A stretch of DNA of 64,000 nucleotides from a virus. The notes under the pieces are model-generated. The model ran no database searches, was not told where the DNA came from, and saw only the letters and a list, made by a program, of their open reading frames with translations. The stretch spans positions 30,523 through 94,522 of the IMG/VR virus record IMGVR_UViG_3300042898_001429. The stretch is one strand, 5' to 3'. Position 1 is the stretch's first letter. Each line of letters opens with the position of its first letter. The position numbers were made by a program, and so were the translations under genes. This document shows positions 573 through 62,446 of this stretch, piece by piece.

Positions 573-980
573 TTAGAACCCTCCGTTAGTCGTGGTATTA
601 GATATATTAAAGGTTACTACTGAAGAGTTGTACGGGGGTACCACATATTTTACTGAAATAGAGACCGTTGTGTCATACGTATTTCCAGAAAGTAACTCAT
701 TTGGAACACCTATCTGGACGTCAGTAACTCTTCCAAAGGGAAGGTTGGCATTTAAATCGGCTATAGCATCCATACGGTATTCAGCAAATACCAGTGGGTC
801 AGGCTCTTCAAACAAAAGGTTTCTAATGTTTGCCCCGTACTTGGGTTCCATTACCCGTTCCCCAGGGCTAGTCGTCAAGATATCAATTATGTTTTGTTCC
901 ATGATGGCGTCCAGAGACGAGGTTGTAGATATAGCGCCCGTATCGGAAGTAAAAGAAAATGGGATTGAAATAGATTTCAT
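573..980 (-). CDS. Baseplate wedge subunit, GPW/gp25 family
   Basis: ILTTSPGERVMEPKYGANIRNLLFE signature. Confidence 0.9.
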   Translation of the reverse strand: MKSISIPFSFTSDTGAISTTSSLDAIMEQNIIDILTTSPGERVMEPKYGANIRNLLFEEPDPLVFAEYRMDAIADLNANLPFGRVTDVQIGVPNELLSGNTYDTTVSISVKYVVPPYNSSVVTFNISNTTTNGGF

Positions 981-47639: not shown

Positions 47640-48071
47640 TTAAAACTTCTCTTTAGCAGCATGTGGGTAACTTTTTGCATAATCATCCATCTCATTACCG
47701 CTGTAGTTGAAGTCACTATCATACACAACGGGTACATAGACGGTTTTACCCTCTTTAGCGAGGTCACTAGCGGCTTGTACACGATGGTGACCTTGTCCCA
47801 TGGTGAAAGTACCATCTTGTTCAGGGACAATCGTGACATGACGCCGTACACCCTCTTTAGCAATGGTGTCTTTCAACCCTTTACTCTTCTTGTCTTCCCA
47901 TAACTCGTCCATGGTCTGCTCAGGTGCTACCAAAATTTTACCTGTTTCTGGGTCCACATCCTGAACATATTCACCCTGACGGTCAACCGAATCGGACACG
48001 AGACCCTTGATTTCATCACCAGTCATGAATAACTTGTACTGGTAGGGGCTTAGATGGTTACGTGCAGACAT
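47640..48071 (-). CDS. ParB/Sulfiredoxin N-terminal-domain protein (no HTH)
   Basis: IAKEGVRRHVTI...MGQGHHRVQAA. Confidence 0.65.
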   Translation of the reverse strand: MSARNHLSPYQYKLFMTGDEIKGLVSDSVDRQGEYVQDVDPETGKILVAPEQTMDELWEDKKSKGLKDTIAKEGVRRHVTIVPEQDGTFTMGQGHHRVQAASDLAKEGKTVYVPVVYDSDFNYSGNEMDDYAKSYPHAAKEKF

Positions 48072-48073
48072 TC

Positions 48074-48511
48074 TTACTTATTATACTCTTCCACGTCAGA
48101 GGGGCCACGGCGCTTATGTTCAGGACTTCCAGGAATAGGGTCTTGGTCTGGACGTGCAGTACCACGAGATACTGACCCAAAGCGAGTTGCAAGACGCTTT
48201 TCATATCGGTGGCGAGGCTCTACTAGTGGAACAGGTGCTGTAGAGTCAAATTGGTTACTCGTGAAGTCTACGATGTATGGTCCACGGCTTGTGGGTACAT
48301 TCACAGCAGCATGACCGAAGTCGTCTCCAGCGTCATACGGCTGTAGGTGAGAACCAGATACACCACCATGTTCAATAAAATGGTCTGAGTATTCGTAGCA
48401 CATACCCTTTTGACGCTTGTCTGTATCAGAGAAGTCTTTGAAGTACCGCTCACCATGCGCTTGTGCAATTGTGCGTAGGTGGTCAGGGTTGATATGGTCA
48501 GATGCTGACAT
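48074..48511 (-). CDS. Papain/transglutaminase-like C-H-D protein
   Basis: GMCYEYS...GHAAV...YIVDFTSNQF. Confidence 0.55.
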   Translation of the reverse strand: MSASDHINPDHLRTIAQAHGERYFKDFSDTDKRQKGMCYEYSDHFIEHGGVSGSHLQPYDAGDDFGHAAVNVPTSRGPYIVDFTSNQFDSTAPVPLVEPRHRYEKRLATRFGSVSRGTARPDQDPIPGSPEHKRRGPSDVEEYNK

Positions 48512-48825
48512 TAGTAACCGTACTGTACTGGGATAAAGGAGTCAGGGTTCAAGTCGTGTGCGATAGCGGTGCGGTGGTGACCATCCATAATGGTAGGTGC
48601 ACCCTTGCGGTCATTCAACCGAACTGGTGTTTGTACACCATTTTTCTTAATATCTTCTCGTAAACCAGAATAGGTAAGGGAAGGACCCTTACTTTGATAT
48701 ACATGCTCTTGATATAGGTTTGAATCTTTAAGACTTGATGCACTTGGGTCGTCGTTAGCACCAAAATTAACTAGTTCACCTGCTGTAAAGAACAAACGAC
48801 GCTGTAGGTGTTCAGATGCTGACAT
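48511..48825 (-). CDS. ParB/Sulfiredoxin N-terminal-domain protein (no HTH)
   Basis: LREDIKKNGVQTPVRL...IMDGHHRTAIA. Confidence 0.75.
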   Translation of the reverse strand: MSASEHLQRRLFFTAGELVNFGANDDPSASSLKDSNLYQEHVYQSKGPSLTYSGLREDIKKNGVQTPVRLNDRKGAPTIMDGHHRTAIAHDLNPDSFIPVQYGY

Positions 48826-49553
48826 TACCAGTTCTTACGTTCTCTATTTTGGATGGTGATGTTACTCTCAGGCATTACCCCTGTGTAGTCCATCGGAAGT
48901 GTTGGTTGTTCTAACGTCTGCTTCTCACCGAACTGAGCCATGTTCAGGCTAGGGGAAGGGACCATGTAAGAGGTTGTATGGTACCGAATAGACTCATTAT
49001 CCATCATGTCGTAGTCTAAATCTGGTGTTTCAGTATTATTCTGGTACGGTACAACTTTATTTTGACGTAATGCGTTAAGTGCTGACTTGACCAGTGGGTG
49101 GTCTACGCCATGGTTACTGCGTGACAAGTTAATTGATGTAGGGACGTTATGACCCTTTTCCTGCAAGAAGTGTGCGTGTGCCTCGTTAGCAATGTCATCT
49201 GGGACAGTTACTGGATGAATCTTGGCGTGGGGAGAGATAGCAAGCCTTTGTACGTTAGGAACGTCCTCTGGTCCATCATATAGAGGTTCGTCGTCGTCAT
49301 TGGTCTTGTATGACCAGTGTGGGTTAATACGCTGTGCTGCTTGGTCTGCTGAGCCAACATGAATAACTGGTGCCTTCATGAACTCTGGACGTAGGTCGGC
49401 GTGGGTACCGTGATACACCTCAATGCCTTCGGGATTTTTTCTAAAATCAGGAGAAGGGTTCTGCATCTGTTGCATCAAAGCAAACCGTGGGTTAAAGTCC
49501 TTCGGTGCTTCAGATGTAACTGGAATCTTACCAAAGAGGTCTTTGTTGAGCAT
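48825..49553 (-). CDS. Possible ADP-ribosyltransferase-fold protein
   Basis: VYHGT...IHVGSADQAAQR...YQN.TE...SYMV. Confidence 0.45.
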   Translation of the reverse strand: MLNKDLFGKIPVTSEAPKDFNPRFALMQQMQNPSPDFRKNPEGIEVYHGTHADLRPEFMKAPVIHVGSADQAAQRINPHWSYKTNDDDEPLYDGPEDVPNVQRLAISPHAKIHPVTVPDDIANEAHAHFLQEKGHNVPTSINLSRSNHGVDHPLVKSALNALRQNKVVPYQNNTETPDLDYDMMDNESIRYHTTSYMVPSPSLNMAQFGEKQTLEQPTLPMDYTGVMPESNITIQNRERKNW

Positions 49554-49864
49554 TATTCAACCTGCTTCAGCGCAAGTGGGGAGATGGAGTGTTTGAGTAC
49601 TTCACCGTTCTCTGCCCAGTCCCAAGGTGCAGAATTAGGTAATTCAACAGAAAACACTGCATCACCGTACTCACGAGCGTTATTAATGTTTTCAGAGAGG
49701 TATACACCTTCAGGATGCCCTGCCTCGTGGGTTTCACCCTCTTCTAGACCTTCATAGCCTTCGGCAGGGTTGTGTGCTACTAATCCATGCTTCTTGATGG
49801 ATTCAACGTTTTTGCTATTCGTACCATGATAGAAGGTATGGAACTGGTGGCGATTAAGAGTCAC
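49553..49864 (-). CDS. ADP-ribosyltransferase-fold protein (H-Y-type)
   Basis: FYHGT...SIKKHGL...GVYLSENINNAREYG..VFSV. Confidence 0.65.
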   Translation of the reverse strand: MTLNRHQFHTFYHGTNSKNVESIKKHGLVAHNPAEGYEGLEEGETHEAGHPEGVYLSENINNAREYGDAVFSVELPNSAPWDWAENGEVLKHSISPLALKQVE

Positions 49865-50100
49865 TTATAGTCCCAAGAGCCGATGCTTGTAGAGCATGAT
49901 GGACAAGTAAAACCATCTGGGTAGGAAGATTGAGGACCTTTACCAACATGAGACAAGCGTATTGCGTTTGTGTTCTTACGGTCAACTAGAGCGTATTCGG
50001 GGTCATTCTTTGCACAATCTGTACATATGGCTTCTTCACCAGTATCATACCCAACAATAGGGTTACCAGCACTTTCGTGAAAATGTTCGTTACGACTCAT
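49861..50100 (-). CDS. Small Zn-binding protein
   Basis: CTDC...CPSC; TAAACT-N6-ATG leaderless start. Confidence 0.6.
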   Translation of the reverse strand: MSRNEHFHESAGNPIVGYDTGEEAICTDCAKNDPEYALVDRKNTNAIRLSHVGKGPQSSYPDGFTCPSCSTSIGSWDYK

Positions 50101-50115
50101 CTACTAAGTTTACAA

Positions 50116-50131
50116 TGTTTCACGTGAAACA
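50116..50131. promoter_or_regulatory. parS: parS site (chromosomal type)
   Basis: TGTTTCACGTGAAACA, perfect 16-bp palindrome. Confidence 0.85.
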
Positions 50132-50247
50132 ATTTGGAATAGGGCTATGAAATCCCAGTTTTTCCGTTATCGCATTTTCCATTATGGGGCTATATGGGGT
50201 GTTGCTGGTCTTTGGGGGGTGGACCCTGCCCCCATACCCCGTGAAAA

Positions 50248-50270
50248 TACCCCCCTAACCATGGGGGGTA
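50248..50270 (-). terminator. Hairpin plus U-run directly after cassette promoter 1
   Basis: Minus strand TACCCCCC-ATGGTTA-GGGGGGTA then TTTT. Confidence 0.5.
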
Positions 50271-50275
50271 CTCTC

Positions 50276-50314
50276 ATCTTAGCACGGCTGAGGGGAAGCC
50301 GAGGGGGGGGGGGG
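50276..50314 (-). promoter_or_regulatory. Cassette promoter 1 (no ORF at +1)
   Basis: C12-TCGGCT-N15-TAAGAT. Confidence 0.8.
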
Positions 50315-51040
50315 TCAGTCTACTGAGACCGAGAACGTCATTTCTCCGAGGGCTTCACGCACTTTGTCTGTGAGGTCAAGGTTGTCCACCGCATTCTCTA
50401 CCGCCTGAGCGAATGAGTAGGACTCTGTGACATCATCCACGATGTCCTTGTCGTCAAATGCGCTCTCTACTGCGCTCTCAATCTCCACGGATACTTCCGC
50501 CATGACTTGCTTGACAATAAGGCTAATGAGTTGGGCGACTAGGTCGCTGGCTGTTGTTACTGGGCTTGTGTATGTTTCCATAACTCCATCGTAGGCGCTG
50601 GGCGCTGGAGCCGAGGGAGGGGGGGTCAGCGCCGCATTTACTTGCATAGTGCAACTAGATGTTTCACGTGAAACATTTTGAGGGCTATATGTTTCACGTG
50701 AAACATCGGAGGGGGATAAGGGCAGGCTTTCACCACGTACACGTGCATTCAGTATTGCTACACGCTCACAGGGCACCCACGCATCCAGCGTATCTATGTT
50801 CACGCCCACCATGTCCTCGCCCACCTCTACGAAGGCTCCAGCCTTGAGAGCATTCGCCCATGTATAAGCCTCTTCAGCCTGACGGAGGAATTGCCCAGCA
50901 AACTCCATAGTTCCAGCATCAGCCAGTTTCCCAGCCATATCTAGATAGTACTCACCAGCCACCCATATATGGTGCCCAAGTGAATAGCCTCCCATGTAGT
51001 AGTGGCGTGTCGTGTTGTGTGTTGTCGTGTCGTTGTTCAT
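50315..51040 (-). CDS. Hypothetical protein; internal leaderless start at 50581 gives a separate 88-aa acidic protein
   Basis: Promoter 3 heads ATG 51040; promoter 2 heads in-frame ATG 50581. Confidence 0.65.
   Translation of the reverse strand: MNNDTTTHNTTRHYYMGGYSLGHHIWVAGEYYLDMAGKLADAGTMEFAGQFLRQAEEAYTWANALKAGAFVEVGEDMVGVNIDTLDAWVPCERVAILNARVRGESLPLSPSDVSRETYSPQNVSRETSSCTMQVNAALTPPPSAPAPSAYDGVMETYTSPVTTASDLVAQLISLIVKQVMAEVSVEIESAVESAFDDKDIVDDVTESYSFAQAVENAVDNLDLTDKVREALGEMTFSVSVD
50588..50625 (-). promoter_or_regulatory. Cassette promoter 2 (leaderless, ATG 50581)
   Basis: TCGGCT-N15-TACGAT-N6-ATG. Confidence 0.8.
50660..50675. promoter_or_regulatory. parS: parS site
   Basis: Within the 18-bp palindrome ATGTTTCACGTGAAACAT (50659-50676). 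Confidence 0.85.
50690..50705. promoter_or_regulatory. parS: parS site
   Basis: Within the 18-bp palindrome ATGTTTCACGTGAAACAT (50689-50706). Confidence 0.85.
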
Positions 51041-61076: not shown

Positions 61077-62108
61077 ATGAGCAGAGAAACTAGCAAGACG
61101 CTAAATACCATGACGCTAATCGGTAACGTCGCCAAGCGTGGTTCTAACGCATGGCATTATCGTGCAGAGTCCCAAGGTGGAGAGCCAAACCATTACGACG
61201 GAGCAATCCCCATTGAAGACGTTGAGCGCCGTCTCTTCTTCTGGAACGCTGTTGAAGCACCAGTATTCGTAGGCGTCCGTGACGAGCGTGGAGACATCAT
61301 CCGTTACATTGAACAGCCTGACCGCAAAGCAATCATGCGTGATGACAACAACCACGTGATGGGTATGTTCAAGGAAGATTACGCTATCCATCAGTATCGC
61401 CACACACTTCTTGACAACGTCAGCAACATCATTGACAACAACCAACTGGTTGTGGACTCTGCTGGATGCTTGCGTGAAGGTGCCATCGCTTGGGTAGCAG
61501 TATCCATGCCCGACAACATTGAAACCTCAGCGGGTTTCCCTGTACGCCCAATCTTGTTGGCAACCACCAGCCACAACGGAACTATCGCAACCACCTACAA
61601 GCAGGTGTATAACGCCCCTGTATGTGACAACACGTTGTTCGCAGGTTTAGGTACTGATGGAGCACAATTCAAGGCTCGCCATAGCAAGCACAGTGATATG
61701 AAAATCCAATCAATTCGTGAAGCACTGGACATCGTGTTCAGCATGAGCGAAGACATCATTGCTGAGATTGAAAGACTGTCCAACATTACAGTCACTGCTA
61801 ATGAGTGGGACGCCATTGTCAATCGCCTCATCCCTGTGGGAGAAGCAGAAACTACTCATCAAGTGTCCATTACACGTATGCAGAACAAGCAAGAAATAAT
61901 GCGTAACCTGTACCGTACCGACCCAATGGTTGCGCCATGGCATGGCACCGCATTGGGAGTTCTTCAGGCTTTCAATACCTTCCAGCACCACGTTGCTGGT
62001 GACAACAAGACACGTTCAGAGCGCAATGCAATGAACTCACTCAACGGAAAGATACAGCAGTCAGACGCCAACGTAATCTCAGTCATCAACGACTTGGTAC
62101 TGGCGTGA
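61077..62108 (+). CDS. DUF932 family phage/plasmid protein
   Basis: AWH, DSAGCLREG, LLATTSHNG, VCDNTL, RHS, GTALGVLQAF motifs. Confidence 0.8.
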   Translation: MSRETSKTLNTMTLIGNVAKRGSNAWHYRAESQGGEPNHYDGAIPIEDVERRLFFWNAVEAPVFVGVRDERGDIIRYIEQPDRKAIMRDDNNHVMGMFKEDYAIHQYRHTLLDNVSNIIDNNQLVVDSAGCLREGAIAWVAVSMPDNIETSAGFPVRPILLATTSHNGTIATTYKQVYNAPVCDNTLFAGLGTDGAQFKARHSKHSDMKIQSIREALDIVFSMSEDIIAEIERLSNITVTANEWDAIVNRLIPVGEAETTHQVSITRMQNKQEIMRNLYRTDPMVAPWHGTALGVLQAFNTFQHHVAGDNKTRSERNAMNSLNGKIQQSDANVISVINDLVLA

Positions 62109-62119
62109 CATTGGTGGTG

Positions 62120-62154
62120 GGGGGAGAGGTGGTGTCAAACGCCATCTCTTTCCC
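62120..62154 (+). terminator. Hairpin after DUF932 gene
   Basis: GGGGGAGAGGTGGTGT-CAA-ACGCCATCTCTTTCCC, 16-bp stem with G-U pairs. Confidence 0.55.
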
Positions 62155-62170
62155 TAGCCTCCGCCATGTA

Positions 62171-62446
62171 ATGAACACAGGGTGGCGTGAAAACGCCAGT
62201 TGTGCAGACCTCCCAAAGGCTGTCTTCTTTGATTACCAATCAGGAACTACAGAACACAAAAAACAAACTGTTGCGTTAGCAATGGCGACTTGTAAGGGAT
62301 GTAAAGTGCGTTCTCAGTGTTATGAGTTCTCTGTGATGAACAATGAGCCATTCGGTATTTGGGCTGGGACGTACCCACACCACAGAAAGAGGCTGTTCAG
62401 ACAGTTCAAGGTTACAGGGATTCTAGAACCTCAAGAAGTCGTTTAG
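62171..62446 (+). CDS. whiB: WhiB family transcriptional regulator
   Basis: WRENASC...CKGCKVRSQC...FGIWAG; likely start MNTGW. Confidence 0.88.
   Translation: MNTGWRENASCADLPKAVFFDYQSGTTEHKKQTVALAMATCKGCKVRSQCYEFSVMNNEPFGIWAGTYPHHRKRLFRQFKVTGILEPQEVV

Follow-up and report, generated by a model that had tools for sequence, protein, structure and literature searches.

Introduction

Why would a phage that encodes no DNA-binding ParB carry several perfect copies of TGTTNCACGTGAAACA, the site of chromosomal ParB in most bacteria, Actinobacteria included (PMC7022226)? The question is raised by a 64,000-nt stretch of viral DNA, called the window here, which spans positions 30523-94522 of a 94,522-bp IMG/VR virus record with a completeness rating of 100%. 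A preliminary description, made from the letters of the window, had pointed to three parS sites of the host-chromosome type and proposed that the phage uses them to recruit or to titrate host ParB.

Three perfect parS sites in a phage genome

The 16-mer TGTTTCACGTGAAACA is found exactly where the preliminary description had placed it, at 50116-50131, 50660-50675, and 50690-50705 (parS1, parS2, and parS3). Its assignment to the host-chromosome type is borne out by the consensus given in PMC7022226, which all three sites fit at 16 of 16 positions, the comparison being with this general consensus. The last two sites are indeed 18-bp palindromes whose starts lie 30 bp apart and which encode VSRET twice in a minus-strand ORF, and AGGGCTAT, said to follow the first two sites, is present at 50141 and 50681.

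With up to three mismatches allowed, the window holds four parS matches against 0.48 expected, and this count was reached in none of 100 dinucleotide-preserving shuffles of the window. The scan of the rest of the genome that had been recommended adds no further site, and across all 94,522 bp there are only these three at one mismatch or fewer, the next-best sites being no closer than three mismatches. Among actinobacterial chromosomes, that of Corynebacterium glutamicum has 10 copies and that of Mycobacterium smegmatis 3 (PMC7022226). The phage sites do not take up the origin-proximal placement beside a parAB operon; they lie between the early genes of the phage and an operon of small enzymes, and no identified replication origin adjoins them.

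Layout of the locus

All genes around the locus are on the minus strand (Table 1). Between 59041 and 50302, a regular-expression search finds at least 17 stereotyped promoter cassettes on this strand, laid out as a C-rich run, T[CT]GGCT, N15, TAAGAT, TAAAGT, TAAGGT or a close variant, and N6, with an ATG directly after it in most. Most cassettes precede one small leaderless gene with a Thr-rich N terminus.

Table 1. Features of the parS locus and of the operon downstream of it, in minus-strand order (window positions)
Feature	Position	Strand	Remarks
241-aa ORF	50315-51040	minus	N-terminal helical domain, disordered linker (aa 107-164) with parS3 and parS2, acidic helical C-terminal domain
parS3	50690-50705		18-bp palindrome 50689-50706; start 30 bp from that of parS2; encodes D-VSRET
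TAGCCCT	50681-50687	minus	Between parS3 and parS2; encodes a conserved Ser-Pro
parS2	50660-50675		18-bp palindrome 50659-50676; encodes N-VSRET in the linker of ORF 50315-51040
Internal cassette promoter, TCGGCT-N15-TACGAT-N6	50582-50614	minus	In frame within the ORF, before the invariant ATG 50581; regular expression
Last cassette promoter of the array, TCGGCT-N15-TAAGAT-N6	50270-50302	minus	Regular expression
Terminator-like GC hairpin and T-run	50243-50268	minus	Directly after the last cassette promoter, upstream of parS1
TAGCCCT	50141-50147	minus	9 nt upstream of parS1; kept in L102
parS1	50116-50131		Non-coding; 16 nt upstream of ATG 50100, first gene of the next minus-strand operon
-10-like hexamer, TTG-TAAACT-N6	50101-50115	minus	Abuts parS1, leaderless spacing from ATG 50100; read from the sequence
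First operon gene, 79 aa, Zn-ribbon-like	49861-50100	minus	Tightly packed operon downstream of parS1
Small ADP-ribosyltransferase-like (ART-like) gene	49553-49864	minus	Weak PARP and ART-PolyVal matches; second in the operon
ParB/Srx-fold mini-protein ORF	48511-48825	minus	Weak PHROG matches to ParB-like proteins; GHHR motif
ParB/Srx-fold mini-protein ORF	47640-48071	minus	Weak PHROG matches to ParB-like proteins; GHHR motif

Read on the minus strand from 51040, the order of elements is the N-terminal domain, parS3, TAGCCCT, parS2, a C-run, the internal cassette promoter, and ATG 50581, from which the acidic C-terminal domain runs to 50315; the last cassette promoter and the GC hairpin with its T-run come next and are followed by TAGCCCT, N9, parS1, TTG-TAAACT-N6, and ATG 50100. 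By this order the last cassette gene (50581-50315) is enclosed by the sites, all of which sit in the control DNA that joins the early promoter-cassette array to the next operon. The preliminary description had put them at the boundary between the virion genes and the cassette array, which is roughly right as far as the array goes, but what the sites precede is the small-enzyme operon that starts at 50100, and the virion genes begin further downstream than this operon.

The last cassette promoter has no ATG behind it, and a GC hairpin of 5 to 6 bp with a T-run follows immediately, which could serve as an attenuator, give rise to a tiny RNA, or terminate the array. From the hexamer that abuts parS1 we infer a promoter for the operon beginning at ATG 50100; a generic sigma-70 scan returned no promoter at parS1. 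Beyond the ART-like gene the operon extends down to 47640. The 214-nt gap between the ORF and the operon is highly conserved in the relative G012 described below; no RNA family was found in it by an RNA family search, and its predicted fold is not unusual (z = -1.07).

An open reading frame that runs through control DNA

The product of ORF 50315-51040 has no Pfam or PHROG match. AlphaFold2 predicts linker residues 107-164 to be disordered (pLDDT 30-38), within a model that is poor as a whole (50.7). A DNA-binding fold for this protein was considered and not retained, none being visible in the low-confidence model, whose pLDDT of 50.7 is too poor for a fold search. A homologue search over 5.8 billion proteins gave 24 related clusters at 46-100% identity, and a profile scan of IMG/VR yielded no further loci.

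In the alignment, NVSRET hardly varies among the 22 in-frame homologues, even at identities as low as 46%. This peptide is the translation of AAT GTT TCA CGT GAA ACA, the sequence of parS2, and a frameshifted homologue has MFHVKH, which is this DNA read in a different frame. DVSRET occurs in 5 of the 22 in-frame homologues in addition to the protein of the window. The linker around NVSRET is rich in substitutions and indels among the homologues. Two further conserved linker peptides coincide with elements of the cassette DNA, TPPP with the C-run and AYDGVMET with the -10 hexamer, N6, and the ATG, whose M154 is invariant. Because NVSRET is nearly invariant inside a disordered and indel-rich linker, we conclude from the sequence comparison that the constraint probably acts on the DNA and that the linker is best read as a control region staying open in frame. 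The invariance at the protein level could in principle reflect a function of the peptide.

The acidic C-terminal domain is probably also made on its own, since its start codon, ATG 50581, is invariant and in frame and has an entire cassette promoter in front of it within the ORF. Reading the ORF as a split gene was rejected, there being no short homologues and all 22 in-frame homologues crossing the linker in one frame. In appearance, the linker resembles a translated intergenic control region with its usual TGA out of frame.

Conservation of the sites and limits of the trait

Two close relatives were found in IMG/VR, G012 (46 kb; locus L102) and G009 (72 kb; locus L103). The gene order of G012 is that of the window from 39.5 to 64 kb, at about 74-95% nucleotide identity. 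The preliminary description had named a chimeric assembly as a danger and had called for checks of continuity and of conservation in relatives. The collinearity of G012 over 39.5-64 kb disposes of the chimera, as do L103 and a third locus, L227, both of which come from independent assemblies, and the relatives confirm parS2 in three lineages, parS1 in G012, and parS3 in L227.

parS2 is perfect in G012, G009, and L227, a metagenome contig of a third lineage, and thus in all three lineages for which there is DNA; in G012 and G009 it is intact amid about 80% nucleotide identity. It shows no synonymous change over these lineages, set against a synonymous background of 21-23% differences per identical codon, which by itself is weak (about 0.1 by rough estimate). 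For parS1, which of the two close relatives only G012 covers, the copy is perfect, and both its flank and the arrangement TTG-TAAACT-N6-ATG have been retained there despite a different gene behind them. The ART-like gene, second in the operon of the window, lies directly downstream of parS1 in G012. parS3 is degenerate in L102 and L103, with five mismatches, whereas in L227 parS3 and parS2 are both perfect and have the same 30-bp spacing. The distance from parS2 to the -35 element of the internal promoter is 45 nt in the window and 18 nt in L227, owing to a 27-nt deletion, and this -35 element reads TTGGCT in L227.

Further out, parS is absent from five complete relatives (G001 to G005), whose TerL proteins are 81-84% identical, and from the cultured Streptomyces phage BRock. 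Among 15 further related contigs searched, only G009 and G012 were positive. A trait of the whole phage group is therefore rejected; the absence of parS from the more distant relatives and from BRock confines it to one sub-lineage, and its absence from five complete relatives and BRock makes it dispensable for this type of phage. parS came with, and stays with, one accessory gene family. The parS-less G001 has, at C1:21894-21956 (L194), two other palindromes of 16 to 22 bp, 47 bp apart and with a shared half-site, GTGTCA, which may be an unrelated operator pair.

The phage, its host, and its partition genes

The ends of the genome share about 160 nt, with one mismatch between the copies, and this overlap indicates that the genome is complete and circularly permuted. 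Tail sheath, portal, large terminase, and tail fibers were recognized through PHROG matches, which identify the phage as a myovirus. Its closest cultured terminases, those of the Streptomyces phages BRock and LuckySocke, are 45-47% identical, and the genome has no nucleotide match among cultured phages. No tRNAs were found in the window. Integrative lysogeny was rejected, as a six-frame Pfam search of the whole genome revealed neither a tyrosine integrase nor a serine recombinase or resolvase, and the complete genome yielded no lysogeny genes.

Two WhiB genes are present, one in the window at 62105-62446 (plus strand) and one at genome positions 781-978 (minus strand), and a gene for an Rpf-type transglycosylase straddles the junction of the circularly permuted assembly. 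WhiB and Rpf genes are tied to actinobacterial division and dormancy, and among 14 control genomes the two families were present only in Corynebacterium. The two WhiB genes and the Rpf-type transglycosylase, together with the kinship of TerL to that of Streptomyces phages, mark the host as an actinobacterium. The WhiB query gave no match in the reference genomes. The host search produced a single terminase match, 76% identical, on a 16-kb contig (L226, PCAM01000041.1) that is binned in a Chloroflexota metagenome-assembled genome; this is probably a binning error and no evidence on the host.

Six-frame Pfam searches of the whole genome gave no match to ParB_N, HTH_ParB, AAA_31, or CbiA (ParA-type). 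The earlier remark that the window holds no ParA and no ParB with a helix-turn-helix (HTH) thus remains true and can be widened to the complete genome, and a cognate phage parAB elsewhere, for which a search had been proposed, is rejected. What the region does encode are two ParB/Srx-fold proteins without a DNA-binding domain, the products of 47640-48071 and 48511-48825. The model of the former is confident (pLDDT 86) and consistently matches, with modest scores, the N domains of KorB, ParB, Noc, PadC, and SbnI as well as sulfiredoxin; in a profile search against the PDB, KorB was found at E = 0.26. Functional coupling of parS with these mini-proteins was considered and found no support. Paralogues occur in the parS-less relatives G005 (four copies) and G001, and for this reason the mini-proteins are not tied to parS.

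Orphan parS sites in other phages

IMG/VR was scanned for pairs of perfect parS sites separated by 5-35 bp. This tandem arrangement is present on at least 98 contigs (L004-L101), which form at least 38 nucleotide-level clusters with GC contents of 26-73%, and none of the contigs listed is related to the window phage. Among the matches listed, 46 of 50 sampled contigs lack ParB_N, as do all 12 sampled records that are at least 90% complete. The matches listed include several clusters of phi29-like podoviruses of Clostridium or Bacillus and one cluster whose members are complete phages of 42 to 43 kb, bounded by direct terminal repeats, with a GC content of 54% and no cultured relative.

A single perfect parS was also noticed in an unrelated group of phage fragments (L214:9150-9400 and its look-alikes), where it lies in conserved intergenic DNA immediately before the leaderless gene of the large terminase, whose -10 element is TAGGGT. 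ParB_N and WhiB were not found on fragments of the L214 type.

Comparison with known systems

Bacillus phage phi29 carries five parS sites, through which host Spo0J assists in bringing the phage DNA into the prespore (Meijer et al. 2005, related in PMC2731898). The likeness lies in a phage classed as lytic that has no ParB or ParA of its own and several parS sites of the host consensus, with the host partition protein as putative reader in our case; the sites fit the consensus and are kept in relatives here too, in a host phylum assigned from WhiB and Rpf. The outcome for phi29, by the same account, is that the phage genome is inherited by a cell compartment that does not lyse (PMC2731898). 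The differences are those between a 19-kb protein-primed podovirus of spore-forming Firmicutes and a 94-kb actinobacterial myovirus. In phi29 the parS sites act together with Spo0A boxes in spore entrapment, whereas no partner sites are known here, and in the lineage of the window phage one to three sites are clustered in control DNA, two of them in a translated linker. A host parS on a phage without ParB, which the preliminary description had implied to be new, was thus already on record for phi29 and Spo0J (PMC2731898) and is common in IMG/VR. As phi29 uses host Spo0J through parS, the locus is an extension of the phi29 kind to a new host phylum and phage type and not a new principle.

With the chromosomal complexes of parS and ParB-CTP in C. 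glutamicum, M. smegmatis, and Streptomyces, the phage sites share the identical 16-bp sequence (PMC7022226), but they lie beside neither parAB nor oriC, and their number and context are specific to the phage. P1 and the integrase-less cluster A mycobacteriophages likewise bear centromere sites for extrachromosomal inheritance on the phage genome (PMC8612146; PMC10286716). Unlike the window phage, which encodes neither protein, P1, N15, and the cluster A mycobacteriophages each bring a ParA and a ParB, with a site specificity peculiar to the phage. Partition systems reported to date from actinophages are whole parABS cassettes (PMC8612146), and our literature search found no report of host-type parS in actinophages. 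KorB at its operator OB, and ParB-dependent repression in general, resemble the locus in having the site of a ParB-family clamp at or near promoters, and the mini-protein fold matches the N domains of KorB and ParB. In contrast to KorB/OB, the phage encodes neither a DNA-binding protein of the KorB type nor a KorA partner, and of the spacings between site and promoter that of parS2 to its -35 element varies from 18 to 45 nt and that of parS1 to the -10-like element is kept in L102.

What the sites may be for

Taking the sequence evidence together, we favor, with a probability of roughly 55%, the reading that selection has retained the three sites for the loading of ParB in a single sub-lineage of freshwater-type actinophages, with host ParB as their reader, and that they serve the positioning or inheritance of the phage genome. 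Host chromosomal ParB is the expected reader because the phage encodes no DNA-binding ParB. After entry, ParB-CTP clamps of the host would load at parS and spread over the neighboring few kilobases, and the phage genome would then be handled like an origin-proximal part of the host chromosome, with ParA- and pole-dependent positioning and SMC loading. Such handling would allow the phage genome to be positioned and inherited where lysis is not immediate, as in slow-growing or dormant cells, in the way that phi29 makes use of Spo0J. Transcription at parS1, which abuts the -10-like element between the last cassette promoter and the next operon, would likely be damped or insulated as a secondary effect.

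In our analysis, positioning or inheritance would rank first, followed by a role in transcription and then by ParB titration. The first place reflects that this is the only function demonstrated for such sites, namely in phi29, and that WhiB and Rpf genes are present in this genome as well. A single parS can reportedly stabilize a plasmid via host Soj and Spo0J, a finding ascribed to Lin and Grossman in 1998.

Host ParB bound at parS1 to parS3, or spread from them, might instead act on transcription, as a repressor or roadblock between the early array and the operon that follows, in the manner of KorB or of P. aeruginosa ParB at parS3/4, and have no role in segregation. Several features would suit such a function: parS1 lies against the -10-like TAAACT, at leaderless spacing from ATG 50100 in a geometry kept in L102, and stands between the last cassette promoter with its hairpin and the operon; parS2 and parS3 are upstream of the internal cassette promoter; the single parS of the unrelated phage group is just upstream of a leaderless TerL gene; and P. 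aeruginosa offers a case of ParB-dependent repression next to parS, by the account in 10.1101/151340. We nevertheless regard transcriptional control without segregation as unlikely, given that the distance from parS2 to the -35 element varies between 45 nt and the 18 nt of L227, that the sigma-70 scan has no promoter at parS1, and that chromosomal ParB regulates transcription in few species only (PMC7022226). Less likely again is a ParB sponge, whereby replicating phage DNA would draw ParB and SMC loading off the host origin and disturb segregation or division to the benefit of the phage. Actinobacterial chromosomes have 3 to 10 sites (PMC7022226), so that some tens of phage copies would outnumber them, and parAB genes are missing from the phage, but titration would work without conserved placement in control DNA, each genome has just one to three sites, and titration could be a side effect of any role in which ParB is bound. 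As a side effect it would be unavoidable once the phage DNA replicates, and it could also be the main purpose.

Two readings dispense with ParB altogether. In one, the palindromes are read by an unrecognized DNA-binding protein of the phage or by some non-ParB factor of the host, and their match to parS is convergent or a relic of captured host DNA. Most genes of the region have no known function, and the TAGCCCT that accompanies the sites may hint at a further element for recognition. However, three copies match at 16 of 16 positions and those of relatives match too, the six frames hold no ParB-type HTH, ORF 50315-51040 has no DNA-binding fold in its low-confidence model, and the ParB/Srx mini-proteins lack a DNA-binding domain and are present in parS-less relatives as well, all of which makes another reader improbable. 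In the other, the sites have no function as DNA and are due to chance, to an assembly artifact, or to selection on the VSRET peptide. That two of them lie in a coding frame whose peptide is conserved speaks for it, but parS1 is non-coding and yet conserved, no shuffle attained the number of matches seen, the locus recurs in independent assemblies, and the linker is predicted to be disordered, so that we consider it very improbable.

If host ParB does load at these sites, the phi29 trick would reach Actinobacteria and large tailed phages without a link to sporulation, and phages regarded as lytic would have a route to inheritance or silencing in slow-growing aquatic bacteria. The 38 or more tandem-parS clusters, mostly without ParB, suggest a common hijack of host machinery that phage annotation ignores, and which the biochemistry of ParB-CTP can now address directly. 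A bolder and rather doubtful proposal is that borrowing of host ParB through orphan parS sites is a general phage strategy that has gone largely unrecognized, and no peculiarity of phi29 and sporulation. With its sites set into a translated control region and a promoter, the window phage would combine partitioning with silencing of the operon behind the early genes and, together with WhiB and Rpf, would have a carrier state coupled to dormancy in bacteria that do not sporulate.

The TAGCCCT flank

On the coding strand of the genome there are 18 copies of TAGCCCT against 5.8 expected, an approximately 3-fold excess, and the idea that the motif is a rare signal is weakened by this number of copies. 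In the window phage and its relatives the motif stands 5-12 nt upstream of parS. It is placed likewise in 11 contigs of the unrelated group (L211-L214, L218-L222, L224, and L225), and at L223:11257-11294 it flanks parS on both sides, making a perfect palindrome of 46 bp.
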